Shown: piece by piece, positions 7,101 to 37,424 of the stretch
Layout of the letters: every line of letters starts with the position of its first letter
Position numbering within the stretch: the stretch's first letter is position 1
Made by a program: the position numbers and the translations under genes
Notes under the pieces: generated by a model
Told to the model about the DNA's origin: nothing
Databases searched by the model: none
The model's input: the letters and a program-made list of their open reading frames with translations, nothing else
DNA from: a candidate division FCPU426 bacterium
GTDB lineage: Bacteria; Oederibacteriota; Muellerivitia; Muellerivitales; Muellerivitaceae
Direction: 5' to 3'
DNA length: 64,000 nt
Assembly (NCBI GenBank): GCA_963771075.1
Contig: CAVYSE010000020.1
Coordinates: 1-64,000 of the forward strand

Positions 7101-8218
7101 CTTCCACGCTGGCCTTGGAGATCCAAAACCTGGCCACGGAAGACCCGAAACTATTGGGCGACCTGGCTCCGACGGTCCTGACCTCGGGTATTCAGATGGG
7201 CTTCTTCAACGCGCAAGCCACCAACCTGGTGATCGGCCAGCGGTTGGATGCGCTCCTGGGCGGGGACGGCTTCAGCTGGGGTTCCAGCACGGCCTGGAAC
7301 CATTACGGCTCCAACCCCATGTTCGCGGGCGACATGCCGGCCTCGGATGAGGCCGCCATCGCGAAAAACGCGAAGGCCAAGGAAGTGGAGGAAAACGGCG
7401 GATGGGACGGCTTCTTGAGCGGGCAAGGCAACTTCGGCACGCTCTCGGGAGACGGCAACGCCCTGGGGTACAATTATTCCAACGGCGGTATGGTGGGTGG
7501 CGCGGATACGCGCGTCGCTCCCGGCGCCATGATGGGTATCCTGCTGGGGTACAACCAGTCGATCATGACCGACGCCAACAACAGCTCGGTGACCATGAGC
7601 GGCGGCCAGGCCGGCTTGTACGGCGGATTGAGGATGGAGGAGTTCCATATTGGGGCGGTCCTGTCGGGCGCCCTGAACAACTACAATTCGAACCGCGCGG
7701 TCATGGGCCAGATGGCCACCGGCACCTTCACCGGCCAACAGTGGAGCGGCCAGTTGTCCATGGGCATCGACATCCCCTCGGGCGGCGGCCTGCAGATCGG
7801 ACCCTACGCGATGGGCCAGTACACCAGCGTGAACATCGGCAGCTTCACGGAAACCGGCTCGGCGGTGAACGAAACGATCGCCCCGCAGGGCCAGTCCAAC
7901 CTCTCGAGCGATTTGGGCGTGAGGGCGGGAACCGGGTTTGACTGCGGCGGCGGGTTCATCCTGACGCCCAGCGTCAACGTGGCCTGGATGCACCAGTTCC
8001 AGGGCAACAACCCCACGATGAACGCGGCCTTCGTCGCGGGCGGGTCCACCTTCGCGGTGACCGGCCCCTCGACCGGTACCGACGGATGCTCGCTTGGAGC
8101 CGGCTTAAACGCCCAGGTGATGAAGGGCTTCAACCTCTATGCCCAATACCAGGGCGTGGTGGGGATGACCAACTTCACCTCCAACGACATCGCGGGCGGA
8201 TTGACCTTCGGTTTCTAA
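1171..8218 (+). CDS. Giant autotransporter AT1 (~2350 aa once frames are joined), acidic Gly/Tyr/Asp/Glu-rich repeat passenger
   Basis: ORF pieces 1157, 1730, 2160, 2894, 3222 and 4550..8218 continue one repeat protein. Signal-like LLLILAFVAKGVFA near 1210-1255; passenger repeat LLKTGSGALTLSGVNAYTGPTSI; C-terminal beta-barrel ending GGLTFGF. Start approximate (GTG 1171 after GAGGA). Confidence 0.85.
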
Positions 8219-8244
8219 GCCGAAAGCTAACAATCTACGATTCG

Positions 8245-8283
8245 AAAGGCCCGGCCCCCTTAGGGGGCCGGGCCTTTTTTTGT
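8245..8283 (+). terminator. Rho-independent terminator after AT1
   Basis: Perfect 16-bp inverted repeat AAAGGCCCGGCCCCCT-T-AGGGGGCCGGGCCTTT running into a T tract. Confidence 0.9.
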
Positions 8284-8434
8284 TTTGGGGGGCTTCTTTT
8301 ACTAACAAATTGGGGAAGATTTTTGGAATAAAGGTTAATATTTAGTAGCCGGTTCTCCTAGGGAAAGGTCCATCGTGAGATTCGAGGGAACATCTAAAAA
8401 TTCACCCCATCCGCATGGTAATGGGGAGAAAGAC

Positions 8435-11400
8435 ATGTTTGGGGGTATCGATCACCTTCCCCGAAATATTTTTAGGGGCGCTTTTCAATCCATGAGCCGT
8501 CTATTGGGCCTGATGGTCCTTTGCGTTTGGGGTTGGCCTTGTCTCGTTCGAGCCGGGGTGGATGGGTCAAATTCCAATTATTTGGAATCTGTGCCCTTCA
8601 GCATCCTCTCCAATTCGTTGGACCTTTCGGGTGGGGAGGGACAAGGTTCTGCAACCACCAGCGGTGGGAATGGCGGCTATTCCCTCGCCACATTCTCGGA
8701 TTCGGTCTCCGCGGATTCCAGCTTCGTCAATTTTGGCGGCGGGATGGGCGGGCCTTCCAGCGCGGGGAACGGGGGCGACGGTGGTTCCGTCACCCTTTCC
8801 ATCGGGACTACGCTCTCTATAACAAGCCTCCTGAGTCCTACGACCTTCTCGATCCTCGGCGGGGAAGCGGGTTCCTCTTCCAGCCTGAATGGGCTGGGCG
8901 GCCCGGGAGGCAACGCCTCCTTAGCCGTTGCAGGCGGAGTTTCAATGGATTCAGGGAATTTTTACCTGGACGGCGGGGCCGCGGGTTCGGGCCAGGGCGC
9001 CTCCGGCTCGGTTGAAGGAAACGGCGGGAACGCCTTGGCGACTCTTGCCGGTCTGACCGTCACCGGGGATAACAACGATTCCTACGCTGAGATGGGCGGC
9101 GGCGCGGGCGGGTCCGACTCGGGTTCCGGTTCCGGGGGAGCGGGCGGAAGCCTTGGGCTGACGGTCTCAGGTCCGGTTTCCATCGATTCCAGCGAGGTGA
9201 CCCTTTATGGCGGGAACGGTGGATTGGCCGTGGCCGCCACAGGAGGCAATGGAGGGTCCGCTACTGCATCGATCACCAACCTCACCCTGACCGCCGAAAA
9301 CGACGCGAGCTTCCTATATATCAGCGGTGGAGGGGGCGGCGCTAATAGCGGATCGGGATTAAGCGGAGTCGGCGGGAACGCCTTCCTGGCGGTATCGGGC
9401 CCGGCCTCATTGGACGGAGGGGGGCTTTACGTCCTTGGTGGAGATGCGGCCACCGGCGCGGGTGCCGCCGGAACCACCGAAGGGTCGGGTGGGAGCGCCA
9501 CGGCCCTCTTGTCCAGTCTGGCTCTCACCGATGATTCCGATGATGCCTATGCCATCATGATCGGCGGGGCGGGAGCGTCGGATACCGGTCTTGCCTCAGG
9601 CGGGAACGCGGGTGGCACGACGTTGAGCGTCGCGGGCGCGGTTTCCGTGTTCTCCGGCAATGTGACCCTCTTTGGGGGAAGGGGGGGCTCCTCCGAGGGC
9701 GGCAATGGCGGCTCGGGCGGAAGCGCCTCCGCGGGCCTGGGAAGCTTGTCCCTGGTCGCCGACAGCGGCAACGATCCGTCTTTCTTTTTCCTGGATGGGG
9801 GTTCGGGCGGGGCCAACAGCGGGGTGAACGGCATGGGCGTCGGGGGGAATGGGGGAGGGGCCCACCTATCGGTTTCCGGCTCGGTTTCCCTGGACAGCAG
9901 CCAAATGTTCGTGGTGGGCGGAAACGCGGTTTCCGGGGTTGGCCCATCCGGAAGCGCCGAGGGTTCGGGAGGCGACGCCACCGCGTCCCTAGGCGATTTG
10001 ACCCTCACCGCGACCGACCCGCATGTCCATTCCTGCCTCGTCAGCATGGGCGGGGGAACGGGCGCACAAGACTCGGGTTTGGGACAGGGCGGGAATGGGG
10101 GTTGGGCGGAGTTAATCTCCTCTGGCGCGGTTTCGCTGAACGCCGGCCTGTTGGATGTGGACGGGGGGAACGGCGGTTCGGCCGAGGGCGCCCAGGGCGG
10201 CGACGGTGGAAACGCCTCAGCCACCATGGCCAGCCTTTCCCTGACGCCCCTAAGAATCGGTGCCCGCTACTATTTGAGTTATTTCAACCTGCAAGGCGGC
10301 ATGGGAGGTTTCAACAGCGGAGCGGATGGGACGGGTTTGGGCGGGAACGGAGGTTCGGCTTTCCTGACGGTGGGAGGCGCCGTCTCGATGTACGGCGGCA
10401 CCTTGACGGTGGAGGGGGGAAACGCAGTATCGGGCATTGGGACCCCGGGACAGGTGGAAGGCTCGGGCGGGAACGCCACGGCGTCTTTATCCGGTTTATC
10501 CATGGCTTCGGTCTTCATATCCGCTTCCGCCAACGTGACCGGAGGATCGGGGGCGCAGGATAACGGCTTGGGCAACGGGGGAAATGGAGGCGACGCGGTC
10601 ATGGATTCGTCCGGGGCGGTCTCCCTGGACAATACGAACAATTTAGGCACTCAACTGGTGGTGGAGGGAGGTGGGGGGGCAACGCCCGACAGTCCAACGG
10701 AGGGAACGGCGGCGCCGCAGGCGTTTCCTTGACCAGCCTCGACCTGGTCAATAACGCCATCCTGGATGTTTCGGGAGGCTTGGGCGGCCAGGGCGGAGGC
10801 CAGGGGGTATTCGGGAATGGCGGGAGCGCGGGCCTTACGGCATCCGGGGTGGTTTCGCTTATCACCAGCGACCTGTATGTCCTGGGCGGGTCCGGGATCT
10901 CGGGGGAGGGTGGCGCTGGAATGACGGAAGGGAGCGGAGGGAATGCCTCTGCCATCCTGGCCAGTTTAACGGCGGTATCCAACTCCTCCTTCGACCTGGA
11001 GGGCGGTGAGGCCGCGAACGACTTGGGTTCAGGAAATGGCGGCACGGGTGGGAACGCGGCGATGGTGGTATCGGGCCCGGTCTCAGTGGATGGGACCCAA
11101 GTTTTGGTCAAGGGAGGGGCTGGGGGCAATTCCAGTTCCGCCAACGCCGGCAGTGGAGGCGATAGCGGTCTTTTTCTTGGTTCCGCTTTTACCCTGACCG
11201 GGGTGCAGGGAAGCTCCACCTGGATCGTCATCGGCGGGGAAGGGGGCATCGGAAAAGGTTCGTCGGGTGGAAGCGCAGGAATCACGGCTTCGGGGCCCCT
11301 GTCGCTGGATGCCAGCACCATCGATTTGACCGGGGGCAACGGGGATATGGGGGGCGGCGTCGCCCTGACCCTGAATTCAGCATTCTTGAATCATTTCTCC

Positions 11401-14187
11401 GATTTAAGGTTGACGGGCGGGAACGGCTGGTCGGGCACGGGGGGAAGCGTCCAGGTTTCCATCGGCGCCCTGGACCTGGCGGACTCGGGTTCGGAATTGA
11501 GCGTGCAGGGAGGTTTCGGCCCCGCAAACGGGTCCGCGGACGTCACGATCGGCGCCCTGACCGGCGCGGGGGTGCTTTCCATCTCCAGCAGTGGACAGAG
11601 CGGCCTGCAAATCGCCAGCGGGGATTTTGCGGGGGTGATCGGGGGCGACTCGGGTATGGAAAAGACCGGCCCGGGTGCCCTGACCCTGACGGGCGCCTGC
11701 ACCTACGCGGGCCCCACCACCCTCACCGGGGGAGTCCTCAATGTCCAGGGGGACAACAACCTGGGCGATAGCGGCCAGTTGCTATTCAACGGGGGCACCC
11801 TCCAAGCCGGGGCCGGTTTCGCCACCACCCAGACCGCATCCATCAATGCCCCCCTGGGCACCGTGGACCTGAACGGCAACTCGGTCACCTGGAACGGAAC
11901 AATCGGCGGAACAGGAACCCTGGCGGTGGACAACAGCGCTTTTCTTGTAAGCAACCGGCTTTATTTGAACAATCCCAATACCTATTCGGGGGGAACGAGC
12001 GTTGCCTGGTGTGAACTTTGGGTATCCAGCGATTCGGCCTTGGGCGCCAATACCGGTTCCCTGAGCCTGAATGACGCTTACCTATCGGCGACGAACAATA
12101 TCGGTTTTAACGCCTCCAGGAACCTGAACCTGATTGCTTCGGGTTTCCTGGACCCCGAGGGCTTCCAACTCACCTGGAACGGCGTGATCAGCGGTTCCGG
12201 AGGACTGGGAATCAATGACCTGAGCGGTTCCACGACGGGCTGGGTTCTTTTGACGAACAACAATACCTATACGGGCATTACCAGTGTTTTTTCCGGTACC
12301 GGCTTGGCCCTCGCCGGCCATGGGACCCTGGGCACCGGGAACCTGATCAACGACGGCTGGGTGGATTTCAGCCAGACCAACGCCTCGGCCGTTTCAGGAA
12401 CTTCCGTAACCGTGTGCGGCATCTTTGGTTATGGAAATCTTAACCTGGGACAAATCGATCTGGTGACGGGAACGAACAACTCCAACGGCCAAATAGGCGG
12501 TGTCATCGCCGACGGCGGCATCGCCGGGGGCGTGGGGGCTTCCCTCACCAAGGTGGGTTCGGGCTCCCTGACCTTGACAGGGGCCAACACCTATAGCGGG
12601 GGTACGGTCCTGCAGGACGGCATGATCCTGGCGGAAAACCAGGCGGCGCTGGGTACGGGGAATGTGGCCGTCAACGGGGGAACCCTCTTCGTCGGCAACC
12701 TTTTTTCCCTGAATATCAGCGGCCATTACACCCAAGCGGCCGCCGGCACCCTGCAATTGGCCTTGGGACCCTTGGGCCAGGACGATACGCTCCGGGTTTC
12801 GGGCGCGGCCAGCTTGAACGGCACACTGTCCCTCGCCCCGGCCAGCGGTTTTACGGCCCAACCCGGGAATAGCTTCTTGCCGGTCACGGCGACTGGCGGG
12901 GTGGACGGGCGATTCACCAGCCTGGATAGCGATATCGGAGGCATCCGGTTTTATCCCCTCTACCAGCCGGATGACCTGATCCTGGAATGCCTTCCCGCCT
13001 CCTTCGCCTCCGTCGGCGTGACCCCGAACCAGCAGTCGGTCGGAGGAGGGTTGGACGGCCTTTACGGCAATTCCACTTATAACAACCTGATGCAATTCTT
13101 GGGAACCCAAACCACGGCGCAATTGACGGGCGACATGGAAAAATTGAGTCCGGAGGGGTTGACCCCCCTCTTCCGCATGGCCTTCGCCTCCGAGGAAGTG
13201 CAGGGCCAGGCCATCAACGAACGCTTGGAAGACCTCCTGGGGTTGACCAGCATCTGGGGCAACGGCTACGCCCGGTACGGGGAAGAACCCGCCTTCGCCT
13301 CGACGATGTCGGCGGGCCAGGAAGCCTCGATCGCCCGTCGGGTGAGGGACGTGAACCGCCTGGGCGGATTTGTGAGCGGGCTGGGAAATTTTGGCACCGT
13401 CACCGGAAGCGGGGATGAGGCGGGTTATAGTTACTCCACAGGAGGGGTCCAGGCGGGCGTGGACTATTGGCTGAACTGCTCGCTGGTGGCCGGGGTGCTG
13501 GTGAGCTACGACACGCAGGGCACCCGTTCAGGAACCGCAGGCTCCGTCAGCGGCAGCGGTGAGCGGGCGGGGTTGTACGGCGGGTATAAGCAGGGGGTAC
13601 TGCGCGTGATGGGGGAATTGGACGGCGGCGTGAACAATTACAGCACCCAGCGCCTGACCCTGGGCCCGGGCGGGGCCAATGCCACCGCCACGGGTTCGCC
13701 CCAGGGGGAACAACTGGACGGAGAATTGGAAGTGGCCCTGGACCTGACCGGTTCGGGCCTGATCCTGTCGCCTTTTGCCTCGGGCCAATATGGGTACGTT
13801 CAAGTGAACGCCTTCCAGGAATCGGCCAACGCGCTTGTTGGCGAATCGTTCCCGACCCAGGGGCAATCGGACTTGGAAAGCCGGGTGGGGTTGAGGGCGG
13901 GGACAAGCTGGCCCCTGGGCCTTTTTAGCCTGGCACCTTCCATCAGCGCCGCATGGGAACATTTTTTTCAGGGTAATCAGGACCAACTCACGGCGAACTT
14001 CGGCGCCCCGGGCAGCGCCTTTACCGTGGCCGGCCCCGCGACAGGCACCGACGACATGGACCTGGCCGCCGAGTTGGAAGCCCAGGTCTCCCGGCAGGTC
14101 ACCTTCTTCGCCCAGTTCGAGGGCAAGGTGGGATTGGCGAATGTCGATTCGAAGGACATAACCGGCGGGGTGAATTGGGGTTTCTAA
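8435..14187 (+). CDS. Giant autotransporter AT2 (one frameshift near 10675)
   Basis: ORFs 8375..10732 and 10729..14187 join if the G7 run at 10673-10679 is G8. Hydrophobic signal, Gly-rich repeats, passenger repeats (LTKVGSGSLTLTGANTYSGGT), barrel ending GGVNWGF. ATG 8435 has GGAG upstream. Confidence 0.88.
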
Positions 14188-14573
14188 CCGCGCTGACTCA
14201 AACCGTTCTTAGGACCACCTGGGCCGGTGGATGGGGTAGGTGGGTAAAATAGGTACCACGAACTCAGCCCCTGCGGCTCCATTCAGAAGCTGAAAAAAAC
14301 TTTGCTCTTCATCGCGATCTTCGCGGAAATCGTTTGAGGCAAGTTACCGGTAATAGATAAAAACAGGGCAGTTGTCAAATCGATAATATTTGTATTCATC
14401 CATAATTGTAAGAATCTTCCCTTATTTCCGTTCAATTCGAGGTAAGATTTGAAAGCTGTTCCTTTCGCCCCCCTTCAGGGCAACCGGTGCCCCGGTTGCC
14501 GAATGGGGATTCATTCAAAAAACCAAAATTCAAACAATCCAAATCACTTAATCTCCACGAAAAGGGAAGAACT

Positions 14574-17500
14574 ATGAAAAACCTCTTTGGGATACCAGCG
14601 TTGAAAATCTCCGCGTTTGCGGTCGCGGCTCTTGGGTTCATCCTGGGTCCAGGGTTGGGTTGGACCCAATCGAATTACCAGATCACTGACGCCAGCGACC
14701 TGGCCGCGGCCATCCCGGCCATCAACTCGGGCGCCGTTTCCTCCACCCTGACCTTCCAGGATTCCTTGATCAACCTTTCCACCCTGTCGGGCCCCCTGAG
14801 CGTGATCGGGTACGACGTCAACATCCAGGCCGCTCCGGCGGGCAACTATTTGAGCGTCTATAACGCCACTTTCGGGGCCACGGCCAGCCTCAACTCCACG
14901 GCCTTGGTGGCGGTCAGCGCCTCCAACCTGGTGAACTTATCCGGCGGCGGATATTTCGGGACGGACGGGTCGGGAAACGGCCTGGCGGGAAACGCGGACT
15001 CCCTGGGCGCGGGAAGCCTCGCCTTGTCCCCGGGAGCTTCGCTCAACCTGCAGGGTGGCAACGGCGATAGCGGAACGGGCACGGGCGTGGGCGGCGCCTC
15101 GGGGAGTTCCACCCTCTCGGTGGCCTCCATGCTTTCGATGGATTCCAGCTCGGTCGCGGTCGCGGGCGCGGGGGGCGGCTCGGGAAATGGGACCTTGGGT
15201 AACACGGAAGGTTCGGGCGGCGACGCCCTCGTGACCCTGGGGCCCCTCAGCGAAACCTCGGCCAGTTACCTGGGGAGTTCAACCGGAAATCTTTCCACCT
15301 TCACCCTCACGGGCGGCAATGGCGGCGGGGACAGCGCCCAGGGTAACGGGGGCAATGGGGGCGCGGCTTCCCTGAGCCTTTCCGGCCCGGCATCGGTGGA
15401 TACAAGCACCGTGATTCTTACGGGAGGCAATGGCGGGTCGGTCAACGGATCGGCTATTGACGCCAACCTAGGCAACGGTGGCCAGGGCGGCGCGGCGGGC
15501 CTGATCCTGTCCGGTGGATTGTCCCTTCGGTCCGGCAGTGCCATCGTGACGGGCGGTAAGGGGGAAGCACCCAAAGTGGCGCGAATATCGGGGGCGTTAT
15601 CGGCGGCGCGGGCGGCGCGGGCGGCGATGCCGTTGTTTCCATCGGATCGGATGTGTCCCTCAGCGCGGCGAGCGGGGCCTCCACCCTCGGGATCGCCGGA
15701 GGGAAGGGCGGCAACAACGTGAGTGAGGATTGGGGGGCCGGAGGCACGGGCGGCAGCGCTGTGCTATCGGTGGCGGGGATGGTTTCGGTGGATTCCAGCG
15801 CCATCCAGGTATCCGGCGGGTCGGCCGGCCAGGGAAACAACCAGACGGGATCGGCGGGAAGCCAGGGTGGGAACGCGACCGCGTCCCTGACCTCCTTGGT
15901 CATGACCTCCAACAGTTTCGCCGCTAATTCCGCTATCGGCACCCGGTCCAGTTTCTCGCTTGCCGGTGGGAATGGAGCGGTGGAATTCGGCGATGGCAAC
16001 GGGGGCAACGGGGGGCAGGCTCTCCTGACGCTTACCGGATCGGGCTCGGTGGATTCCAGCGACCTGGAAGTGGCGGGGGGCGGGGGCGGGTCTTACGACG
16101 GCTATGACAAATTGGGGGGCCCGGGGACCGGCGGCATTGCCGGTAACGGTGGGGATGGAACGGTTTCAGCAAGCTTGGGACTCACCCTGACCGCGGCGAA
16201 CCAATCCGCCACCTTGAGGGTGTCGGGCGGCGGGGGCGGAACCGGAAGCGAGGCGGGTAACGCGGTTCCGGGGGTGGGCGGTTCGGGGGGCACAGGGAGC
16301 CTGGAAGCCGGGCCGGTATCGATCGATTCCAGCACCCTCCAGGTCCTGGGCGGGGTGGGCGGCGCGGGGAACGGCCAAAGCGGCGTGACAGAAGGCATGG
16401 GCGGGGATTCGAACGCCATGGTCCAGGGGTCCCTGGTCCTGACCTCAAACCAGTATTTCACCCATTCCGGGGTCGGGGCTTCCTCCAATTTGATCCTGGG
16501 CGGGGGTTCCGGGGGAAGTGACCTGAACCTGGGCCAGGGGGGGACGGCGGTTCGGCGGCCCTGACGGTTTCGGGCGGTGTATCGTTGGATTCCAGCAACG
16601 TGACGGTCTCGGGCGGTTTGGGCGGCACGGCGGTAAATGGCAATGGCGGCAACGGCGGTGGGGCCTCGGTTTCCCTCGCGTCAGGCTTGTCCCTCACGGC
16701 GGGATATGGCGCCTCCAACCTCGATGTGCTCGGAGCCAATGGCGGAACGAACAACGGCACCGCCGCAGGCGTGGGCGGGTCGGGTGGCTCGGCGGAACTG
16801 TGGGTTTCGGGCCCAGTCTCGGCGGATTCCAGCTCGATCAACCTTTCCGGCGGTAATGGCGCTTATGGCGTGGGCTCAACCCAAGGCCCGGGGGGTGATG
16901 CATCCATGAACGTTGGATCATTGGTAGTCACTTCCAACCAATATTTCGGGGGCCTCGGCAGGGGAGTTCAATCGGGAATCACGGTCACTGGCGGCGAGGG
17001 CGGTTTTACAAATCAGGGCAACGCGGGCGCCGGGGGAGGCGAATTTCACCTCGTCCAGGGCGGTGTCGGTGGATTCGGGGCTCGTCCAAATCACCGGCGG
17101 GGCCGGAGGCAGCTCCACGAACGGAGCGGGGGGCCAAGGCGGCGGCAGCTCCATGACGGTTGGGACCGATTTGAATTTGACCGGGACCCACCAGGGTTCG
17201 GTCTTGACCCTATTGGGTGGGGCTGGAGGCAACGGGGCCGATGGCGGCGGTACGACCTTGACGGTCGGGGGCAACCTCTTATCGGATTCCAGCGTCGGAA
17301 TGATCACCGGTGGCGCGGGCGGCAATGCGGCCAGCGGGAACGGCGGCAATGGGGGCAACGCGGCGGTCCTCGCCGGTGGGAATTTAAACCTGACTTCAAC
17401 CATTAGCGATGACACTTTCACATTGGCGGGTGGGAAGGGGGGGCAGTCGAATGCCTCCGGCGTGGGGGGGATGGGCGGCAACGCGCTGCTGTCGGTGAAT

Positions 17501-20500
17501 GGCGCGGTCAATGTAAACGCCGGGTCGTTGGAAGTCGCGGGGGGCGCGGGTAATTCGGACTATGGTTCCGCTGGTTCCATGGACGGATCAGGCGGGAACG
17601 CGACCGCCCTACTGACCAATATGACCTTGACCTCGGATAATTATTTCGGTGGGCCCAACGTGGGTTCCCAAGCCAGTTTCACCCTCGCGGGGGGACAGGG
17701 CGGAAGTGACCTCAACCTGGGCAACGGGGGCGAAGGAGGCTCCTCGGCCTTGACGGTTTCGGGATGCGGTCTCGTTGGATTCGAGCGAATTGGCCCTTTC
17801 CGGCGGGGATGGCGGCGGCACCACTAACGGTACGGGCGGCACCGGTGGTAGCGCGACGGCCTCCTTTGGATCGATCTTGACCCTGACCGCCGCCCACGGC
17901 GATACCACTTTTACGGTGGCCGGTGGGGCGGGTGGCCAGTCGAATGGTTCCGGAACGGGCGGAACGGGCGGCGACGCGCTCTTGTCGGTCAATGGGGCTT
18001 TATCGATCGATTCCGCCAATGTGACCGTGGCAGGGGGGATTGGCAATGTCGGCGTTGGTTCCACCGGGTCCATGAACGGCGCGGGCGGAAACTCAGGTGC
18101 CGCTATGTCGGGCCTGTTTATGACCTCGAATAGTTATTTTGGGGGCCCGAGCGCTGGGTCCCAGGCCAGTTATGTCCTCGCGGGGGGAAACGGGGGGAGT
18201 GACACGGGCTTGGGCAACGGGGGCAAAGGGGGCTCGGCGGCCTTGACCCTCTTGGGCGGAGTTCAGGCGGATTCCAGCCTGGTTCAAATAACAGGAGGCA
18301 GCGGTGGAAGTTCCAGCGCAGGCGTGGCGGGCCAGGGTGGCGACAGTTCCTTGACCACCGGAACGGGTATCAGCCTGTCTGGAACCTACCAGAGTTCGGT
18401 TTTGGATATCGCGGGAGGGTCGGGCGGCAATGGGGCCGATGGCGGTTCGGCGGCCTTGACGGTCGGGACGGCGATCACGGCCCATTCCAGTTTCGTGACG
18501 GTTTCGGGAGGGTCGGGTGGCAATATCGCCAGCGGAAACGGGGGAAAAGGGGGCGACGCGACGGCGGTCCTCGGCACCTCTTTAGACATGGTCGCGGACA
18601 ACAGCGATACCGGGTTCTCGGTGCTCGGTGGGAAGGGCGGCCAGACCAACGGATCAGGGGTGGGCGGGGCGGGCGGTGAGGCGGTTTTGACGGTCGCTTC
18701 CTCGGTGTCGGCGGATACCAGCCAGGTGAACATCCTGGGCGGCAACGCCAACTCGGGTTACGGTTCGAGCGGCGTTACCGAAATGGCGGGCGGCGACGCG
18801 AACGCGTCCCTGGGTTCCATGAACCTGACCTCCAACCTTTATTACGGAAATCCCGGGGCCTATACCGGACCGGCCGCCCTAAACCTGACGGGTGGGAATG
18901 GCGGTTATGACAGCAACGCGGGCAACGGCGGCCAGGGCGGTTCGGCATCCCTGACCGTTTCCGGGGGGTTCTCCATTGATTCCAGCCAGGTCGGTTTAAG
19001 GGGAGGCGTGGGCGGTAACGTGTCCAGCGGAACCGGGGGGCAGGGGGGAAACGCGTGGGTTTCCATCGGCACTGACTTGACCCTGGGTTCAACCTACGGG
19101 AGTTCGGGCATGAACCTGTACGGAGGGGGCGGCGGGAGCAGTTCCTCCGGGGTCGGGGGGGCGGGCGGCGACGCGACACTCCTGGTTTCGGGCGCCTTCT
19201 CGGGAAGCAATATCAACGTATTGGCGGGTAACGGCTCCAACGGTGGCAACGGCGGCAACGCCATTTTTGACGCGAATTCCGCGGCCTTGAACGGTAGCGC
19301 CACCCTGACCCTCCAGGCGGGGAATGGGGGCTCCGCCGGCAATGCGGGGGTCACCCTTGGTTCCCTCGACCTGGTGGACGCGGGTACCTTCATGAGCGTG
19401 CAGGCGGGAACGGGCACGTCCAACGGCGCGGCGAACGTCCAAATCGGATCGCTCGCGGGAGCAGGGGGACTTTTCGTCAACAGCGCGGGCAACAGCAGTT
19501 TGCAGGTTTCCAGCGGCGATTTCACCGGCGTCATTTCCGGAAATACGGGGCTGGACAAGACCGGCGCCGGGGCCCTGACCCTGACGGCCGACAACACCTA
19601 TTCGCAGGCCACTACCCTGGATGGGGGCGTCCTTCAATTCGGGGCTGACGCCAACCTGGGCGCCAGCGGCCAGCTGGTTTTCAACGGGGGAACCCTGCAG
19701 GCGGGCAACGATCTCATCACCAACGAGACGGCGACGCTGGCATCTACGGCGGGAACCATTGACCTGAACGGCAACGCCGTGACTTGGAACGGAGTGATCG
19801 GCGGGCCGGGGTCCCTCAACGTGATCTCCTCGGCGGCGGGTTCGGGCCTCCTGACCCTTTCCAACACGAATACCTATGCGGGGGCCACATCCATCGTGAA
19901 TACCGCGGTGGGTGTTTTTGGGGATTCCAACCTGGGGACGGGCGGGATTGTGCTTAATGGCGGCACCCTGGCGGCTTTGGACAACCTGACCCTTTCCCAT
20001 TCCATCACCCTTCTCGCGAACGGCGGGACCGTGGAGGATGACGCGAATAACATTACTTTGAGCGGAATCATCAGCGGTTCCGGCGGATTGAACCTTGAGG
20101 GCACCCCTTTTCACGGGGTTCAAGTTCTTAGCTTGACCGGGGCCAACACCTATTCGGGCGGGACAACCATCGGAGCCTTGTATTTACAGATCCAAAGTGG
20201 AGCCGACTTGGGGACGGGGACCGTTGTGTTCAATGGAGGGATATTACAGGCGGGCGCCAGTTTCGCCGCCAATCAAGACATCGCACTTAATAACGGGTCG
20301 CGTGAGATTGATCTCAACGGCAACTCGGTCACCTGGAACGGCGTTATTAGCGGGAATGGGGAATTGGAGGTAGGGGATTCCTCTGGAAGTGGAAATGGGG
20401 TTTTGCGGCTGACCAATTCCAATACCTATACGAATGGGACTTTAGTGAATGGGGCTAATCTTTGGGTTTCCAGCGACGCCAACCTGGGCGCGGCCTCTGG

Positions 20501-22649
20501 CACCCTCAACCTGAGCGACGGCCAACTTTCGGCCTCCGACAACATCAATTTCAACGCCTCGAGAAACTTGGACCTGACCGGAAGCGGCGGCTTGTTGGAT
20601 ACCGAAGGCAACCAGATTACCTGGAACGGTGTCATTAGCGGCTCGGGAAACTTTGAGATCGGGGATGGCAGCCATTCCAGCACGGGGGCGGTGACCCTGA
20701 CCAATGCCAATACCTATACCGGTTCCACCGTGGTCGATTTGGGCACCAGTCTGGTCCTCTCCGGCAATGGGACCTTGGGCGAGGGTATGCTGGGAGCTAA
20801 TGGAACCGTCGATTTCAGCCTGACTAACGCCTCGGCCGTGGCGGGCACGCCCGTAACGGTTTCCTCCATCATCGGGAACGGCAACCTCTACCTGGGCCGG
20901 ATCGACCTGGTGACGGGGACCGATAACGCCAACGTGGAATTCGACGGGGTTATTTCCGACGGCGGGGCCGCAGGCGCGGGCGTCACAGGCGCCTCGCTGA
21001 CCAAGGTGGGTTCCGGGGCCTTGACCCTGACGGGCGAAAACACCTATAGCGGCGGCACGGTCCTTCAAAGCGGAACTCTCGTGGCGGGAAATAGCCAAGT
21101 GTTCGGCACTGGCGATGTGGCCCTCAACGGGGGTACCCTTCAGATCAGCGGGCCCCGGTCCCTGAACGTGGGGGGCAATTACACCCAATCGGCCGGGGCG
21201 ACCCTGGCCCTGGGCTTAGGCCCCATCGCGACTTCTTGGGACACCCTGGTGGTCGGGGGCACCGCCCACCTGGGCGGAACCCTGGAAGTGGTTTCCTACG
21301 GGGGGTTCGCCATTCACGACAACGAGACCTTCACCATCGTGGAGGCGGCCGGCGTGACCGGAACCTTCGGGAGCGTACAGGATTCCGTGCCCGGAGACGC
21401 GGTGTCGGTGGCCTACAACCCCACCGACGTGATCCTTTGCACACTGGCCAACGCGCCTTCATTCCATTCGTTGGGCACGACTTCCAACCAAAAACAGGTC
21501 GGCTCGGCCTTGGATAACCTGGCCACGGGTTCGGGTTCATCCGCCCTGATCACCTTCCTGAACAGCCAGTCCAATTCCGCCCTCCCGGGCGAAATGGAAA
21601 AATTGAGCCCGGCGGGATTAACTCCCCTTTTCCAGATGGGATACGCCTCGGCGGAAGTGCGGGGGCAGGCCATCAACGCGAGGCTGGAGGACCTCTTGGG
21701 TCTCACCAGCGTCTACGGCAACGGCCTGGCGAGGATGGGCGGAAGCCCGATGTTCGCCTCGACCCTGCCGGCGCGGGAGGAAGCGGGGATCGCCCGGCAT
21801 GTTTCCGAGGACAACCGCCTGGGCGGGTTCCTGACCGGGCTGGGCGATTTCGGCACCGTCTCGGGCGATGGCAACGCTCCCGGTTACAGCTTTTCCACGG
21901 GAGGAGTGCAGGCGGGCATCGACTATTGGTTCGACCGCTCCCTGGTGGCCGGTCTTCTCTTCGGCTATGACCAGTCGGGAACCGGCACGGGAAGCACCGC
22001 CAGCGTCAGCGGCAGCGGGGAAATGGGAGGCCTCTACGCCGGATGGAAGGCGGATGAGCTTCGGATTTTGGCCCAGGTGACCGGCGGGCTGGACAACTAC
22101 AGTACCCAGCGCGAGACGCTGGGCATGGGCGGGGTCAACGCCGTCGCCACGGGTTCGCCCCAGGGGGAACAACTGGGCGGGGAACTGAAGGTGGCCTTGG
22201 ACCTGACCGACGCCGGCCTGATCCTCTCTCCCTTCGCCTCGGGCCAGTATGGCTACGTGCAGGTGAACGCCTTCCAGGAAGCGGGAGGCGGGGTGCTGGC
22301 GCCCGAGTCCTTCCCGAACCAGGGGCAATCCTCCCTGTCGAGCCAATTGGGCCTCAAGATGGGGACGAGCTGGTACCTGGGAGACTTCAGCCTGGCGCCC
22401 TCCATCAGCGCCGCCTGGGAACATTTCTTCCAGGGCGACCTGGACCAGATAACGGCTAATTTCGGGACCTCGGGTTCATCCTTCATGGTGAGCGGACCCG
22501 CCACCGGGGCCGACGACGCCCTCTTGGGCGCCGGCTTGGAAGCACAGTTCTCCCGGCAAGTCACCTTTTTCGCCCAGTTCCAGGGCAGGGTGGGCATGAC
22601 GAACGTGGATTCGAAGAATATTTCGGGCGGGGTGAACCTGGCTTTTTAA
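14574..22649 (+). CDS. Giant autotransporter AT3 (~2690 aa joined; about four frameshifts)
   Basis: ORF pieces 14487, 15653, 16585, 17063 and 17775..22649. Signal MKNLFGIPALKISAFAVAALGFILG; Gly-rich repeats; several LTLxxxNTYxGxT repeats; barrel ending GGVNLAF, very similar to AT2. Confidence 0.88.
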
Positions 22650-31056: not shown

Positions 31057-31342
31057 ATGGTGGTAAAAGGTTACCAGGAACATGTTCCAATCCATTCCGC
31101 CTTGGGTGTCATGGATCGTCGCGGCTGAGAATTAAAATCAATCGGACGAATTATTTTGAAATTTACATTCCCGCCTCCGCAAGCTTGATAGTATCATTCA
31201 TCAGGTTTAACGCCCCTTTTTGAAATTGAGGGGAAAGAAAAATAAAAAAATTAGGGGAGCCGCCATGAAGCATCAAGGGTGGACTTTATTTCTCGTGTTG
31301 GTATTAGGCCAAGCCTTGGTCCTGTCCCACCTGGCCTGCGGG
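31057..31342 (+). repeat. Direct repeat copy 1: upstream region plus lipoprotein signal peptide
   Basis: Near-identical to 33448-33731; the 78 nt from the ATG through the codons for LACG are identical. Confidence 0.95.
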
Positions 31343-33358
31343 AACGGCAATACCCCCACCAGCGCCCCCGCACCCGTGACGGTCGTTCAACTGGTGACGG
31401 CCACACCCACCCCCACAACTTCAGGCACTGCCCTATTCACGGCTACCTCCACAAAAACGATCACTTTAAGCCCCACCGTCACCAATTCCCTTACGATTAC
31501 CTTCACGCCCACCATCACGGGAACCTTCACCCAAACGAACACTCCCACGGTAACGAATACCCCCACCGCGACCTCGACTCCCATGATCCTGTCGGTGGCA
31601 ACCGTCCTCGGCACACCCGCGGACTCGACGCAGGCCCCCGGGGCGCAGAATGTGCCCATGATGCAGTTCAGCGTTAACAATCCCGGACCTGCCCCGGTGA
31701 CCCTTTACGGATTTATTTTTCAATCCGTGGATTCAAGCAATGGGTCGCAAATATCGGGGGTCGCCCTTTTGAATTCCCAGGGAACCCTGTTGGATAGCCG
31801 GGATTACAATTCGGGCTATGTGACGTTGGGAGGCGCTCCGCTAACGATCCTCGCAGGCGGTTCGGCTACTTTTGTGACGAATTATAATTTTCAGGCGACG
31901 GCGGCGACCGGGGAATACAGCATGTCCCTGATGGGCATCAAGGGCCGGGATGACACCGGGCAGCTGGTCCAGGTCACAGGGGTTCCCGTGAGGGGCGCCC
32001 TGATCACGGTCGCGCAGTCGACCTTGGTCCCGACCAATAGCCCGACCAATAGCTTCACCTTCACTCCAACCTATACGGGAACCATCACCCCGACGATCAC
32101 CATGACCCCTCCCTTTACGGCGACTCCCACCCCGACTTCGACCCCCTACCTTTTGTCGGTGGCGACCCTCGCGGGTACGCCCTCGGCTTCGTTACAGATT
32201 CCCGGGGTGCAGAACGTGGCGGTGATGCAGTTGAGTGTGAACAACGCTGGATCAGCCCCAGTTACCTTATACGGATTGGTATTACAGGCGGTCGATTCCA
32301 CCTATGGGTCACAGATCGAGGCGGTGGATCTTTTAAACGCCCAAGGCGCCTTATTGGATAGCAAGCCGTTTGGCAATTCGGGTTATGTGACCTTGGGAGG
32401 CGCACCCCTGACAGTGCCGGGGTCTGGCGCGGTGACCTTCGGGGTGAATTATGACTTTCAGGCGTCGGCCGGGAATGGAACCTACACGGTGGGTTTGACG
32501 GGTTTGCGGGGAGTCGATGACACCGGCCAACCGGTACAGGTATCGGGGATTCCGGTGACGGGCGCGGCCATCTCGATCGCCCAACCAACGGTGACTCAAA
32601 CGGTCACCCCGACCAGCAGTCCCACCATCACCTTTACGCCCGCCAATACCTCCACGCCTTCTTGTCCAAGTGGGGAGTACAATTGCGGGGGCCAGTGCGT
32701 CAATTTTCAAACCGACAACAATAATTGCGGGGCCTGTGGGTTTGCCTGCGCCGCTGGACAAGTTTGTTCGGGCGGTTCTTGCCAATTAAGCTGTGAGACC
32801 GGCGAGACGAATTGTTCCGGGCAGTGCGTCAACCTTCAAACGAGCGACCAAAACTGCGGGACCTGTGGACATGCCTGCGCCGCTGGACAAGTATGTTCGG
32901 GTGGTACTTGCGCCATTAGTTGTCAAAGTGGCTTAACGAATTGTTCGGGGGAGTGCACCAACCTGCAAACCGACAACAGCAACTGCGGAGCCTGCGCTCA
33001 CCCATGCGCGGCCGGGCAAATATGTTCGGGCGGTTCTTGCCAATTAAGTTGCGAGAACGGAGAAACCGCTTGTTCCGGGCAGTGCGTCAACCTTCAAACG
33101 AGCAACCAAAACTGCGGGGCGTGTGGGGTTGCCTGCGCCTCTGGACAAGTATGTTCGAGCGGGAAATGCACAATTACCTGTCCTTCGGGCGAAACCGCAT
33201 GCCCTTCTTCTAGCCCGACCGGTTGTTTCAATCTCTCCAATGATGTCAACAACTGCGGGTCGTGCGGGCATGTGTGCGCTCCCGGCCTGGATTGTGTTGG
33301 CAGTAGTTGCGTCAATACGGTGCCAACCGTAACACCGACCCCGACCGCCACGCCCTGA
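31265..33358 (+). CDS. Lipoprotein with Thr/Pro linkers, two Ig-like domains and five Cys-rich repeats
   Basis: Lipobox LA-C; duplicated domain (PGAQNVPMMQFSVNN / PGVQNVAVMQLSVNN); repeats of the form CVNLQTxxxNCGACGxACAAGQVCSGGxC. Confidence 0.85.
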   Translation: MKHQGWTLFLVLVLGQALVLSHLACGNGNTPTSAPAPVTVVQLVTATPTPTTSGTALFTATSTKTITLSPTVTNSLTITFTPTITGTFTQTNTPTVTNTPTATSTPMILSVATVLGTPADSTQAPGAQNVPMMQFSVNNPGPAPVTLYGFIFQSVDSSNGSQISGVALLNSQGTLLDSRDYNSGYVTLGGAPLTILAGGSATFVTNYNFQATAATGEYSMSLMGIKGRDDTGQLVQVTGVPVRGALITVAQSTLVPTNSPTNSFTFTPTYTGTITPTITMTPPFTATPTPTSTPYLLSVATLAGTPSASLQIPGVQNVAVMQLSVNNAGSAPVTLYGLVLQAVDSTYGSQIEAVDLLNAQGALLDSKPFGNSGYVTLGGAPLTVPGSGAVTFGVNYDFQASAGNGTYTVGLTGLRGVDDTGQPVQVSGIPVTGAAISIAQPTVTQTVTPTSSPTITFTPANTSTPSCPSGEYNCGGQCVNFQTDNNNCGACGFACAAGQVCSGGSCQLSCETGETNCSGQCVNLQTSDQNCGTCGHACAAGQVCSGGTCAISCQSGLTNCSGECTNLQTDNSNCGACAHPCAAGQICSGGSCQLSCENGETACSGQCVNLQTSNQNCGACGVACASGQVCSSGKCTITCPSGETACPSSSPTGCFNLSNDVNNCGSCGHVCAPGLDCVGSSCVNTVPTVTPTPTATP
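32663..33310 (+). repeat. Five tandem ~129-bp (43-aa, 8-Cys) coding repeats
   Basis: Read directly from the translation; resembles Stig1-like / myxobacterial Cys-rich repeats. Confidence 0.9.
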
Positions 33359-33731: not shown

Positions 33732-35291
33732 GGCGGAAACAACAACCCGACGACTCCTGGCGGCAATAATAACGGGTCCAACCCAACCTCAACCTTTACC
33801 ACGACCGCCCAAGCGACCAACACCCAGACTTCCAGCCCTACCTTCACGAAAACCCTTGTCAATTCGCCCAGCCCCACCTTGACCCTCACGAACACCCCGA
33901 CCAACTCGCCCACGGGCACTCCCACTGTTACCTCCACCCCGACCTTGACGGGAACCATCACGAACACGCCAGTCTTCACCGCTACCGGCACCATCACCGG
34001 CACGCCGACCTCCAGCTCGACTGAAACGGCCACCGATGTTCCTAGCGGCACCCCCACAACCACGTCCACTACCACGTCCACCCCCATCATGACCGGAACC
34101 CTCACCTTTACCGCGACCGCTGACCCTTCCGATACGCCTACCGCCAGTGGGACCCCAACCGCGACCTTAACCCAAACGGATACACCCACGGACTTGCCCA
34201 CAAGCACGCCGACCGACCTGCCCTCCGCCACGCCCACCCAAACCTCGACCTCGACGGTGGGAATTGGTTCCGCTTGCTCGTACGACAGTGACTGCGCCAC
34301 CGGGGATTATTGCTCGGGCGTGACCTGCGCGGCGAAATTGAACCAAGGCAATGTTTGCTCGGCGGCCGATCAATGTATAACCGGTAATTGTGTGGATGGT
34401 TATTGTTGTAATACCGCTTGCGGAAGTGGTGTTTGTTCGGCGGTCCTAAAGGGCGGAGGATCGAATGGGGTTTGTGGTTGTATAGCGATTGGCCTTCCAT
34501 ACCCCTTGAGTCCCAATCAATGCTGTACCAGTTACGGGGCAGGCGGGGTTTGCCAAAACGCGCCAACACTCACGCCCACCGTTACCCCGACCTCCACGCC
34601 GTCCGCGACCCCCACCTCCACACCCACCGCCAGCCCCACCGTTACCTTAACCGGCACTTTCACTCCCACGCCTGGGTCGAACGGTGTGACCTGGACTTTC
34701 TCGGATTGCGGGTCGGGCAGTTCCGGCCCCACGGACGGATGGATTCAGGCCTCCCCGACATCCCCTTCAACTTTGGTTTCCATTCAAACCATCACGGGTT
34801 TGGGTAGTGGGCTTGTTGGTTCAAGCACTTGCGGATTGGCTTTCTATCTCCCCGGAGGCGCCATGTCGAATGGTATGTGTAGCTGGCAGTCAACGGGGAC
34901 GGACATCGAGACAGTTTCGGCCTACGCTAACTTATCTGTACCCATCAACTGGACCCAAAACGGGTTAACCACGATATCCCTTCAATTTACCTATAATGGT
35001 TATGGAGCCGGTATCCAACCGATCATCGTGGCGGGTTCCGGTCCGACGACTTACAGTGGAACCGTCGTTAATGACAACCAAAGTTCACCCAGTTGGTTGA
35101 CGGCCATCTTTAGTCCATCCTTCAACGGTTCTGATGGAACCCAAGTTTTGGCGGCCGGTTTAGTTGTGAACGAAATGGCTCCACCCCTCTCCATGCCCAA
35201 TCCACATCCCCCCCCCGCTACTATTTGCGCGCCGTCCGGTGAAGAATTGGGCCCTGAAACCATATACGTTGATAACATTGAATTTTATTGA
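33654..35291 (+). CDS. Lipoprotein with long Thr/Pro stalk, Cys-rich domain and C-terminal CBM-like sandwich
   Basis: Same signal peptide as 31265; CITGNCVDGYCCNTAC; ends TIYVDNIEFY. Confidence 0.8.
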   Translation: MKHQGWTLFLVLVLGQALVLSHLACGGGNNNPTTPGGNNNGSNPTSTFTTTAQATNTQTSSPTFTKTLVNSPSPTLTLTNTPTNSPTGTPTVTSTPTLTGTITNTPVFTATGTITGTPTSSSTETATDVPSGTPTTTSTTTSTPIMTGTLTFTATADPSDTPTASGTPTATLTQTDTPTDLPTSTPTDLPSATPTQTSTSTVGIGSACSYDSDCATGDYCSGVTCAAKLNQGNVCSAADQCITGNCVDGYCCNTACGSGVCSAVLKGGGSNGVCGCIAIGLPYPLSPNQCCTSYGAGGVCQNAPTLTPTVTPTSTPSATPTSTPTASPTVTLTGTFTPTPGSNGVTWTFSDCGSGSSGPTDGWIQASPTSPSTLVSIQTITGLGSGLVGSSTCGLAFYLPGGAMSNGMCSWQSTGTDIETVSAYANLSVPINWTQNGLTTISLQFTYNGYGAGIQPIIVAGSGPTTYSGTVVNDNQSSPSWLTAIFSPSFNGSDGTQVLAAGLVVNEMAPPLSMPNPHPPPATICAPSGEELGPETIYVDNIEFY

Positions 35292-35431: not shown

Positions 35432-35675
35432 CCATCCTGCTACCTCACCCTGAGGCGGCGTGACAAATAACCGGGCCGGAAAAAATTTCAGGTTTTGAAT
35501 TTCTGCTTTCTGCCAAATCACGCCTTCCCATGGCTTCTTTACCAAACACCGACCCACTAGGAGAAACATTTGTTGGCGGCCGAGACCAATGAAAATTAAA
35601 ATCAATCGTACGAAGCCCATCATCTGGGTGGTGTCCACCCAATTGGCCAAAGCCACCCTGTGGGACTCAGTTATC

Positions 35676-36636
35676 AAATTTAAGGGTTTTTTGAAGATTT
35701 TGGTAAATCAACTCTTTTGCCGTTTGATTTCTTCCCCATCGGAAAGTTCGCTTTCCCTCCTGTCCGGCTTCAGGCCGGTCCCAGGGCCTAAAGCGGCCAG
35801 ATGAGGGACGGCATTCTCAGAAATACCCCTAATTCCCTTATTTGAATTCGTGGCTTGGTCACGAATTACCCTCCTTCGGGGCCTACAGCGCCTAATCGTA
35901 CGGCAGAACTCTTCGAAATCCCTTCATTTTGTGTGACCGTAATACGGGCTCGTAAGGCCATCGCTTCGAGGTATGGGAGGGGTAATAGCCGAAGCGCCCG
36001 CCCAACCTTTTCCGAGGCAGACCCTTACCGGTCCGTAATGCGTCTTTGGGTCAGTATCGGGTTGGCGCTTTGCATTGGAATATGCACAATCCGACTGCCC
36101 GAGTCCTCATAAAAGAAAATCCTCAAAAAACCCTTAAAAATGGCATTCGCCCGGCGAATGCGAAAAATAAGGGTTTTTCGCGTGGATGGTTTGGGTACTA
36201 ATAGACCCTTTAAAATAAGGGATTTGCTTGTCCGAGGATCGGACAAGTGGAAATAAGGGAATTGGCCATCTCCTGGGAAAAGCCAGGGCTCGTTGCCAAT
36301 TAACGTCAGGGCCTGACGTTAATTGGCAACAAGAATCACCCCACATCTAAAACAAGGGAGTTCTAATTCGGAGTATCCGATTTATAAAATAAGGGTTTTT
36401 TGAAAACCGAGGGAAGCCTTTTGGCATTGGCCGACCTTTGGGACTAAACCGGCCAAATGGGATAAAGCCAAATCAGAAATACTCAAATTTCCCTTATTTT
36501 TAGTGTTCGTAATACGAACAATCAAATCCCTAGCTTCATGGTTGAGGAGGAGCAGAAGACGATGCGCCCGGGTTACCTTCTCCCGGTCAAACCCTAATCG
36601 GTTTGTAATGCGTCTTTGGGTCAGGATCGGGTTGGC
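35676..36636. repeat. Non-coding array of TAAGGG/CCCTTA motifs, palindromes and degenerate direct repeats
   Basis: About ten motif copies and six short palindromes; blocks 35783-35843 / 36439-36499 and 35916-36066 / 36486-36636 align. Confidence 0.8.
36292..36330. repeat. Perfect 19-bp inverted repeat with 1-nt centre
   Basis: GTTGCCAATTAACGTCAGG-G-CCTGACGTTAATTGGCAAC. Confidence 0.97.
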
Positions 36637-36803
36637 CCGGATCAGGGTTTCGATGGCCTGGTAGTTTGCGAACCAGCCCTTATCACAAACGCCATGGTCA
36701 ATCGGGGTTTATCAGGACTCCATCGTCAGGGGCTTGGTCGGATCGGGTTGAACTATCGCGGGGTAACAAAGGGCCCGGGCTGGATCTTTTGTTCACGAAA
36801 ATG

Positions 36804-36832
36804 AAAAAGCCCGAACAATTTTGCCCAGGCTT
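36804..36832 (-). terminator. Rho-independent terminator after the micro-ORF
   Basis: Minus strand AAGCCUGGGCAA-AA-UUGUUCGGGCUU-UUU. The stem pairs fully only on this strand (three G-U pairs). Confidence 0.75.
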
Positions 36833-36856: not shown

Positions 36857-36898
36857 TTACTTCTTTTTCTTCTTGGCGGGTTTCTTCTTCGTGGCCAC
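36857..36898 (-). CDS. 13-aa Lys-rich micro-protein MATKKKPAKKKKK
   Basis: AGGAGGT at 36910-36904, 5-nt spacer, GTG start, TAA stop, and its own terminator 25 nt downstream. Confidence 0.7.
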   Translation of the reverse strand: MATKKKPAKKKKK

Positions 36899-37424
36899 AG
36901 TGGACCTCCTTAAGTTTTAAAATCATATTGATATTAACATACTTTACCGAGAATTTTATATTTTTAATTTCAAAAAAAGAAATGTACTTCAACCGCATTT
37001 TATATTTTTTCGAAAGCAGTCGGAATGTGCGCAGAACTTGGAACAGGAATTCTTTAGAGCTTATATCCTCGGGGGCGTTAAATAGTCACGGAGTTTGCGA
37101 TTAGCCACGACGGGCCATGTAGCTAAGCGCAAGCGCATGCTACAGGGCGGGGAACCACATTGGACATCTCCCAAAACGCTTTTGAACAATGTTTTCTAAT
37201 AAAATCTTCCGCCCTGTAATACCTCTTCATAATTCATTGATAAAACCAGCCTAAATACCATTCTTTTGGATTTGTCAAAATCTCTTAGTGGTGTAATCAT
37301 TGTTTTTACAGGCTTTTTTGTTGAATCCCTAACTGATTGAAAATAACGTAATTTTTTTGGAATAAACGGTTTCCCTCCGTCCTTTAATAGGTAGAGGAGG
37401 GGTTAGGTTAATGGAGGTATCCAT

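Follow-up and report, generated by a model that had tools for sequence, protein, structure and literature searches.

A mosaic of orphan ParB/Noc-like gene fragments carrying predicted binding sites in an intergenic palindrome array of a candidate division FCPU426 bacterium

The window analyzed here is a 64,000-nucleotide stretch of a candidate division FCPU426 bacterium (positions 1 to 64000 of contig C20 in the 4.39-Mb genome termed G000). It contains an array of short motifs and palindromes at 35676-36750, located between two convergent genes, one of 545 codons with its end at 35291 and one for an ECF sigma factor at 37425. Exact TAAGGG or CCCTTA motifs occur 10 times in the array (35681, 35835, 36022, 36131, 36168, 36216, 36254, 36390, 36491 and 36677), making this the top 1.1-kb stretch of the genome for density of the motif; 1,000 dinucleotide shuffles had a mean of 0.96 and a maximum of 5. 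Units consisting of a motif plus a palindrome numbered seven, representing six sites with the symmetric one counted twice, versus 0.15 (maximum of 2) in shuffles. The array described in a first-pass annotation was borne out, with motifs in excess of shuffled DNA, although two of the listed motifs are variants (CCCTTC at 35920 and CAAGGG at 36353) rather than exact copies. All of the listed palindromes were found, as were the symmetric CCCTTA...TAAGGG unit at 36131-36173 and a pair of diverged duplicate blocks (35904-36066 and 36474-36636, 71% identical over 163 nt). The six sites are centered at 35856, 35942, 36152, 36237, 36374 and 36512, with 16 nt between the center and the TAAGGG-type box, or 17 nt at one site. 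Two supposedly wider-spaced variants, at 35845 and 36365, had an unchanged geometry, with the center 16 nt before TAAGGG, and differed in their bases. One contig from a public run covered 35681-36752 with no gap and with 20 differences, so that an assembly chimera can be dismissed as the origin of the array. Public contigs revealed no joint from an inversion or deletion inside it, the one joint listed being a diverged paralog, and promoter and terminator scans gave signals at the level of shuffled DNA only.

Several other features were observed in the window. A 13-codon Lys-rich ORF with a strong Shine-Dalgarno sequence is located on the minus strand at 36859-36900, with a terminator at 36807-36832. 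A 53- to 62-nt hairpin-like repeat, REP-like in character, is present at 37105-37166 and has 12 further copies in the genome (C3, C5, C11 and C26). Three autotransporter genes lie in tandem at 4550-22649, separated by passenger frames that are broken or split, and a cysteine-rich MXAN_6577/STIG1-like repeat protein is encoded at 31220-33358.

Searches of the array by tblastn with intact ParB-like genes produced matches on the minus strand at 36415-36699 (E of 5e-25 to 9e-25) and 35794-36066 (E of ~1.5e-9), in a region where the first-pass annotation had seen no convincing protein ORF. A hit to a decayed known gene had been named beforehand as evidence against that reading, and fragments of ParB-like genes are what was found. 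The array is a mosaic of approximately eight fragments, in both orientations, of a family of orphan ParB/Noc-like genes. In a comparison with all of the fetched loci, each piece was closest to a different subfamily, and the joins between pieces coincided with the AAATAAGGG box or immediately preceded the AATT arm. The shared block is HTH coding sequence, with ANPILTQRRIT being read backwards, and the TAAGGG box reads AAT AAG GGN, encoding Asn-Lys-Gly (NKG).

The leftmost fragment, piece D (35620-35720, minus strand), is a post-helix fragment of type II ('QKTLK...NKG') in which the palindrome has been deleted out of frame. It supplies the TAAGGG at 35681, translates as AKELIYQNLQKTLK and then, in another frame, as LITESHRVALA, and has 90 to 95% DNA identity to copies on C18 and C3 of the same genome. 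Piece C (35722-35874, minus strand) is a type I fragment without the HTH, comprising the site, the NKG box and the downstream helix (TNSNKGIRGISENAVPHLAALGPGTGLKP), and is 81 to 84% identical to loci L049, L108 and L193; its site (35849-35863, minus strand, centered at 35856) exhibits decay near the center and intact AATT arms. Piece B (35872-36066, minus strand) is a decayed HTH-plus-site module with one stop, paralogous to piece A, with 44% identity over 91 amino acids in tblastn and 76% DNA identity to L094. The site of piece B (35935-35949, minus strand, centered at 35942) has a CCGTAATACGG core and one mismatch per arm relative to the site of the resident C1/C7 genes. Piece E (36088-36180, plus strand) consists of type II pre-site sequence and a site centered at 36152, with 79% DNA identity to the L047 and L104 genes, and its symmetric CCCTTA...TAAGGG unit encodes QKTLKNGIRPANAKNKG. 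A noncoding module at 36181-36290 (plus strand) is common to two arrays on C24 (71 to 75% to C24:143083-143271 and C24:150454-150641) and contains a degenerate site near 36201 as well as site G, centered at 36237, with one base inserted before the NKG box. Piece I (36346-36402, plus strand) is a fragment of the L083-L085 subfamily with 82 to 84% DNA identity to L084 and L085; the left half of its site (36367-36381, centered at 36374) is that of gene L085. This piece is joined across the common AAATAAGGG box to a type II post-site piece (36386-36444, plus strand; NKGFLKTEGSLLALADL) that is 88% identical to L120 over 59 nt. The best-kept fragment, piece A (36426-36714, minus strand), retains a complete HTH and a site; its open frame of 108 codons has no ParB N-domain and is not among the listed started ORFs. 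The piece is 60% identical over 99 amino acids to the C1/C7 genes and 81% identical in DNA over 214 nt to L094. Its site (36505-36519, minus strand, centered at 36512), GTTCGTA-t-TACGAAC, has the half-site of gene L091 from another genome.

A second class of hairpin, TGCCAATT-N19-AATTGGCAAC, is present at 36289-36333 and recurs in other arrays; among 31 genomes it was found at five places in G000, in one array of genome G001 and as one loose match in G015. This class (36289-36333, C1:34206, four places on C24 and L242:2620-2790) has a variable 19-nt core and, in two species, is found in arrays alongside the ParB-site units; its source gene was not found.

The ParB-like unit recurs across G000, with several copies inside long ORFs that start with a ParB N-domain. 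Approximately 13 family genes with both the N-domain and the HTH were present in this genome, which also has incomplete copies and, on C3, another cluster of relics. Matches to the family were detected in 17 of 30 other genomes of the taxonomic family, in 3 of 68 genomes outside it and at 28 metagenome loci; viral contigs yielded 65 stretches matching the pattern, none of which was a relative. The Pfam ParB_N domain scored above its cutoff in four of eight family ORFs of G000 and weakly in one, and TIGR00180 fell below its cutoff in five of five ORFs. A profile search against the PDB gave Spo0J (E of 1e-33) and Noc as best matches, with ParB and KorB also matched, and the GxxR and NPR/K boxes were found in 72 and 60, respectively, of 86 family members. 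A structure model with a pLDDT of 92 (50 for an earlier model) matched Noc, ParB and KorB; residues 118-271 aligned to Noc-NBS (6y93) with a Z of 9.8 and an rmsd of 2.8 over 115 residues and to ParB-parS (6s6h) with a Z of 8.7. The C-terminal part comprised a membrane segment plus a variable domain in 43 of 85 ORFs and a second ParB-like domain in 14 of 85. In many members of the family, among them P0003 (residues 520-670), L005 and L010, the C terminus consists of membrane helices followed by a domain with VirB8/DotI-like atlas matches, which are weak (0.83-0.86 for P0003) and a lead only. The 674 ORFs located within 1.5- to 6-kb flanks of 107 gene loci and 27 array loci contained no ParA-type deviant Walker A motif, and no recurrent recombinase or other partner was apparent, the largest cluster of neighbors being present at 6 of 107 gene loci. 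The 15-mers of resident paralogs occurred exactly only in copies of their own genes, with the exception of the C1/C7 site, which was also present in a C24 array. A search of openly accessible literature found no published account of the family, nor of a helix and a site that covary inside a single gene.

In the intact genes, a 15-bp odd palindrome is situated just after the HTH, 18 to 39 codons downstream of the recognition helix, and is centered on the middle base of one codon. The type I set comprised 48 distinct homologs, exact duplicates having been dropped and eight distant rows without anchors set aside. Pairs 2 to 7 were Watson-Crick in 45 to 48 of these sequences versus an expected 13 to 36, and 38 distinct half-sites were represented. 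The CG-N5-CG pattern, previously taken for a conserved core, was present in only 16 of 48 close homologs. The innermost pair was complementary in 41 of 48 homologs and G-T pairs occupied only 5 of 336 cells across pairs 1 to 7, a combination that fits the dyad symmetry of duplex DNA and not an RNA stem. At least six of seven pairs were formed in 50 of 57 domains from distant subfamilies, with the codon phase kept in 49 of those 50; for random windows of 90 nt, the rate of seven of seven pairs is 3.9%. Predictions were written down before a further set was fetched, and 17 of 18 sequences in it contained the palindrome, 15 in phase. The palindrome was absent from one type I sequence, L100, and from the second, C-terminal HTH-like domains of the same genes.

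Mutual information between 41 protein columns and seven bases in the type I set gave top pairs that all involved HTH columns and were one-to-one. The HTH-base pairs still led after a control for block identity (partial r of 0.84, 0.53, 0.50 and 0.48; median of 0). Arg in helix 1 accompanied G1 in 34/34 sequences, and Arg as the first residue of the recognition helix accompanied G2 in 10/11 versus 0/37. Lys was paired with G5 (33/33), Glu with C4 (15/15), Pro with A4 (6/6) and Trp with G6 (9/10), the last three associations being underpowered on the tree. Since the sequences scored here had also supplied the rules, these were tested on other sets. In distant subfamilies (n = 47), R/G2 held in 4/4 versus 1/43, R/G1 in 16/18 versus 5/29 and Q/A2, a pairing seen before the formal test, in 9/10 versus 2/37. 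The inner rules failed in these subfamilies (K/G5, 1/14; N/T3, 10/14, not significant; W/G6, 0/2; D or E/C2, 2/6). A FastTree phylogeny of 100 rows, limited to in-phase sequences with at least six of seven pairs and built without the helix and site, supported R/G2 (13/13 versus 1/87; eight independent pairs; p ~0.008), Q/A2 (15/16 versus 3/84; six pairs; p ~0.03) and helix-1 R/G1 (47/49 versus 8/51; p ~0.016), with the proviso that, given block swapping, flank-based trees may overcount independence. Three cross-pair controls on this tree were null. The type I tree was too star-like, with one to three independent pairs among those listed. For a protein-only held-out set of 10 hits, decoded from codon pairs, 36 of 40 predictions were right, 3 were ambiguous and 1 was wrong, many of these being majority states and one protein being a training row. 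A blind set gave 6/7 for Q/A2, 4/4 for R/G1, 0/1 for R/G2 (a pseudogene) and 2/4 for helix-1 Q/T1, and piece A of the window breaks the R/G rule on both arms. Further signals linked the helix after the site to base 6 (z of 8.5; 39/48 rows) and helix 1 to base 7 (z of 6.7).

In the alignment with Spo0J, the R/Q column falls on the Arg of GKSR, equivalent to R173 of ParB. Contacts of R173 with guanine 1 and of Gln with adenine 1 are described for ParB/Noc in the accessible part of one report (PMC7383237). At the sequence level, the covariation at this column is the published Arg-G/Gln-A switch of ParB/Noc, and it held on the tree and largely held in the held-out sets. The palindrome is, very probably, the predicted binding site of the protein encoded by the gene in which it lies.

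Two G000 paralogs are near-identical over ~100 codons, but at the recognition helix the similarity breaks off abruptly, even at synonymous sites. For the C11 and C13 copies, differences affected 2 of 33 synonymous codons upstream of the helix, compared with 6 of 12 in the block itself. Other pairs exhibited a similar dip; identity between L108 and L049 was 0.96 upstream, 0.69 in the helix, 0.59 in the site and 0.87 downstream. This abrupt divergence from the recognition helix onward indicates that helix and site move as one block. Units were also amplified in tandem, in frame (L041, L044 and L050).

A search with the unit pattern gave 77 matches in 13 of 31 genomes versus 2 for a backwards control. 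Most of the 20 loci fetched around non-gene matches contained two to five different sites, remains of the HTH being sparse or absent, and stand-alone arrays of two to nine different sites recurred in G000 and eight relatives, adjoining type I R-M, toxin-antitoxin, ORF6N-like and small wHTH genes. A family of small winged-helix genes was observed downstream of arrays at L011:4635-5210, L015:3534-4004 and L201:3002-3472. In the accessible part of an account of programmed inversions (PMC9881135), RhuM, DUF1016 and DinD appear as neighbors only. Nine units with ~63-bp spacing are present at C22:24170-24660 of G000 (L012:2170-2660), downstream of rplI and before an XRE/IrrE-like pair. The unit-pattern search and fetched loci also detected, in G001 (L190-L192), a 63-bp-phased array downstream of rplI, with three or four units between hsdR and hsdM. 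The rplI-downstream arrays of these two genomes carry different sites.

Noncoding units had longer arms than coding units, with pair 12 formed in 32/47 versus 3/35 and pair 14 in 25/47 versus 1/35. A T/C mismatch imposed by Leu-Ile...Asn-Ser was lost by changes on either arm (G-C in 22 and T-A in 10 of 47), and arm changes in either direction are the signature expected of quasi-palindrome template switching. Core pairs of the noncoding units were paired in 40 to 47 of 47; pairs 8 to 11 are fixed by the search pattern itself. In a test for MITE features, which are terminal inverted repeats and a target-site duplication, the shared flanks of G000 copies were patchy upstream blocks of 80 to 700 nt with no common ends. 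No orthologous empty site was identified via the downstream ECF sigma gene, the best relatives being ~49% paralogs. A multi-copy reverse-transcriptase ORF, of the group II intron type by sequence, is present at C3:151219-152808 and at approximately 10 other places, and one copy adjoins the C3 relic array.

Taken as sequence comparisons, these results suggest that the window array is probably a stack of ParB-like gene fragments with their own predicted sites, built by recombination and deletion and mostly relic. A relic origin is the likeliest reading because of the long decaying coding remains, the poor match to resident sites and the one-sided differences between strains. An intact paralog would dimerize on the site in its own gene, load there as a CTP clamp and thereby damp its own transcription; for the half of the copies with a membrane segment, the clamp may tether the locus to the membrane. 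Helix and site, ~60 to 100 bp apart, would move as one cassette, so that one exchange could change specificity and permit escape from repression by a resident paralog. Template switching between the arms may then re-symmetrize point changes. The stack would be built by many rounds of recombination and deletion between the conserved sequences that flank the sites, leaving in the window mostly a relic of cassette traffic between convergent genes and not a selected platform. The relic reading does not explain the 40-to-47-of-47 core pairing in noncoding units or the recurring 63-bp-phased rplI arrays with different sites in G000 and G001.

Recurrence and kept symmetry would be compatible with a functional bank. 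The palindromes might be cognate sites and the array a selected bank of operators or decoys that lets many paralogs, whether resident or incoming, dock on or silence the locus or be titrated by it, in the manner of the SGI1 parS mimics, a proposal that we consider rather unlikely. Symmetric array cores and the identity of one C24 array site with the resident C1/C7 gene site would be consistent with such a bank, but five of the six window sites are two to four mismatches from the half-site of any resident paralog. The recurrence of arrays with two to nine different sites in G000 and its eight relatives, many of them devoid of HTH remnants, and their position beside the R-M, toxin-antitoxin, ORF6N-like and wHTH genes described above would also fit a bank, whereas the window array has long decaying coding remains in both orientations, and array position and content vary between genomes. 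A sister strain exhibited one-sided changes in three stems (three of five differences, in 19% of the length; p of 0.054), which also argues against selection for a bank. A further and speculative reading, on balance unlikely, is that the arrays are silent cassette libraries from which ParB clamps, in part membrane anchored, copy helix-plus-site modules and so switch specificity. If this were true, the stacks would also record the specificities met by the lineage, and the outcome would be a phase-variation-like form of DNA recognition with a natural residue-to-base code and dozens of orthogonal ParB/site pairs.

It is very doubtful that the units are hairpin or cruciform elements, whether hot spots or selfish REP/MITE-like sequences, with symmetry arising from template switching alone and covariation reflecting codon linkage. 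Linkage predicts diffuse covariation, whereas the observed signal joined one column to one base and the cross controls were null. Helix and site do travel as a block, as such linkage would require. Relative to L083/L085, however, L084 has a block that is almost unchanged except for K to R, accompanied by T to G. The covariation reproduced the R/G and Q/A switch known from the literature and also holds in other families (L034 and G078 copies). The frequent complementarity of the pair next to the center, the lengthening of arms in either direction once noncoding and the in-frame tandem amplification would each be expected of such elements, but the C-terminal HTH-like second domains have no palindrome. 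That the locus is a structured RNA or a platform for chromosome partition or replication, ideas along the lines of the first-pass annotation, is scarcely credible and largely refuted: source proteins with a ParB fold, clustered palindromes and hairpins foldable on paper are in its favor, but other contigs carry a canonical ParB (on C25) and, at C27:5522 and 8341, two perfect parS sites, the exact site of each resident paralog is confined, with one exception, to its own gene, the 674 neighboring ORFs contain no ParA-type Walker A, all five Rfam hits (E of 0.27 to 4.4) are far below the gathering score, G-T pairs are rare, the innermost pair would close a 1-nt loop and the pieces are in both orientations. 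The broader proposal of a multi-site protein-binding platform survives insofar as the palindromes behave as dimeric ParB-type HTH sites, but these derive from the coding sequence of the proteins themselves.

The relic reading, like that of a bank, would account for covarying hairpin arrays as ParB-site debris or banks and not as RNAs or REPs. Since the gene carries its own target, each sequence is a paired protein/site data point, and ~100 such pairs would widen the two-state ParB/Noc switch to a larger natural code and may be a source of orthogonal ParB-parS labels.

Among known systems, integron attC sites have RYYYAAC...GTTRRRY ends and a nearby integrase; no match to this motif was found in 35601-36780 on either strand, and none of the eight tyrosine recombinases of G000 is on C20. 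REP/BIME elements have a conserved palindrome, a GTAG/CGTC flank and an adjacent RAYT gene. Dispersed mosaic clusters of short palindromes and arm homogenization are common to REP/BIME, quasi-palindromes and the present arrays, but here the core varies and derives from a coding position. The suggestion of a REP family failed, with no GTAG/CGTC flank at any of the six window sites, no adjacent Y1/RAYT gene and 38 half-sites in 48 genes. Y1 hits number 20 in G000, with none on C20, C22 or C24; 17 of the hits are in mostly 316- to 326-codon frames and three are of IS200 size.

In Bacillus subtilis, a parS site lies inside the spo0J coding sequence and is one of several identical centromere sites, whereas the intragenic site described here is the sole exact genomic copy for most paralogs and varies between them. 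The KorB operator is of odd length. KorB governs a regulon through many copies of one operator, and no such regulon was seen here. As in the present family, KorB-OB of IncP involves a ParB-fold repressor on a palindrome, according to the accessible text of one report (PMC7022226), and the fold match to 8qa9 had a Z of 13.4. ParB-parS and Noc-NBS likewise combine a ParB N-domain containing GxxR with an HTH domain and a palindromic site, and the first residue of the recognition helix is matched to the second base of the half-site as Arg-G or Gln-A, as far as the available portion of that account extends (PMC7383237). The family differs from both in having a 15-bp odd site instead of a 16-bp even site, one per gene and inside the gene; in its dozens of specificities, to which a further switch located in helix 1 of the HTH belongs; and in its many copies per genome with no adjacent ParA. 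A ParABS system was rejected on the lack of an adjacent ParA and on the 15-bp odd sites being confined, with one exception, to copies of their own genes. SGI1 carries parS mimics, two copies of one site of a known plasmid ParABS, which resemble the present sites in that both are orphan sites for ParB, lie in accessory DNA and could serve to capture the ParB of another element (PMC10954446, accessible part). Here, in contrast, there are many different sites, and coding remains are present. By analogy, and within what is accessible of that account, the SGI1 mimics are the nearest precedent for orphan sites, while the intact genes would represent a ParB-parS-like system reduced to one gene with one internal site.
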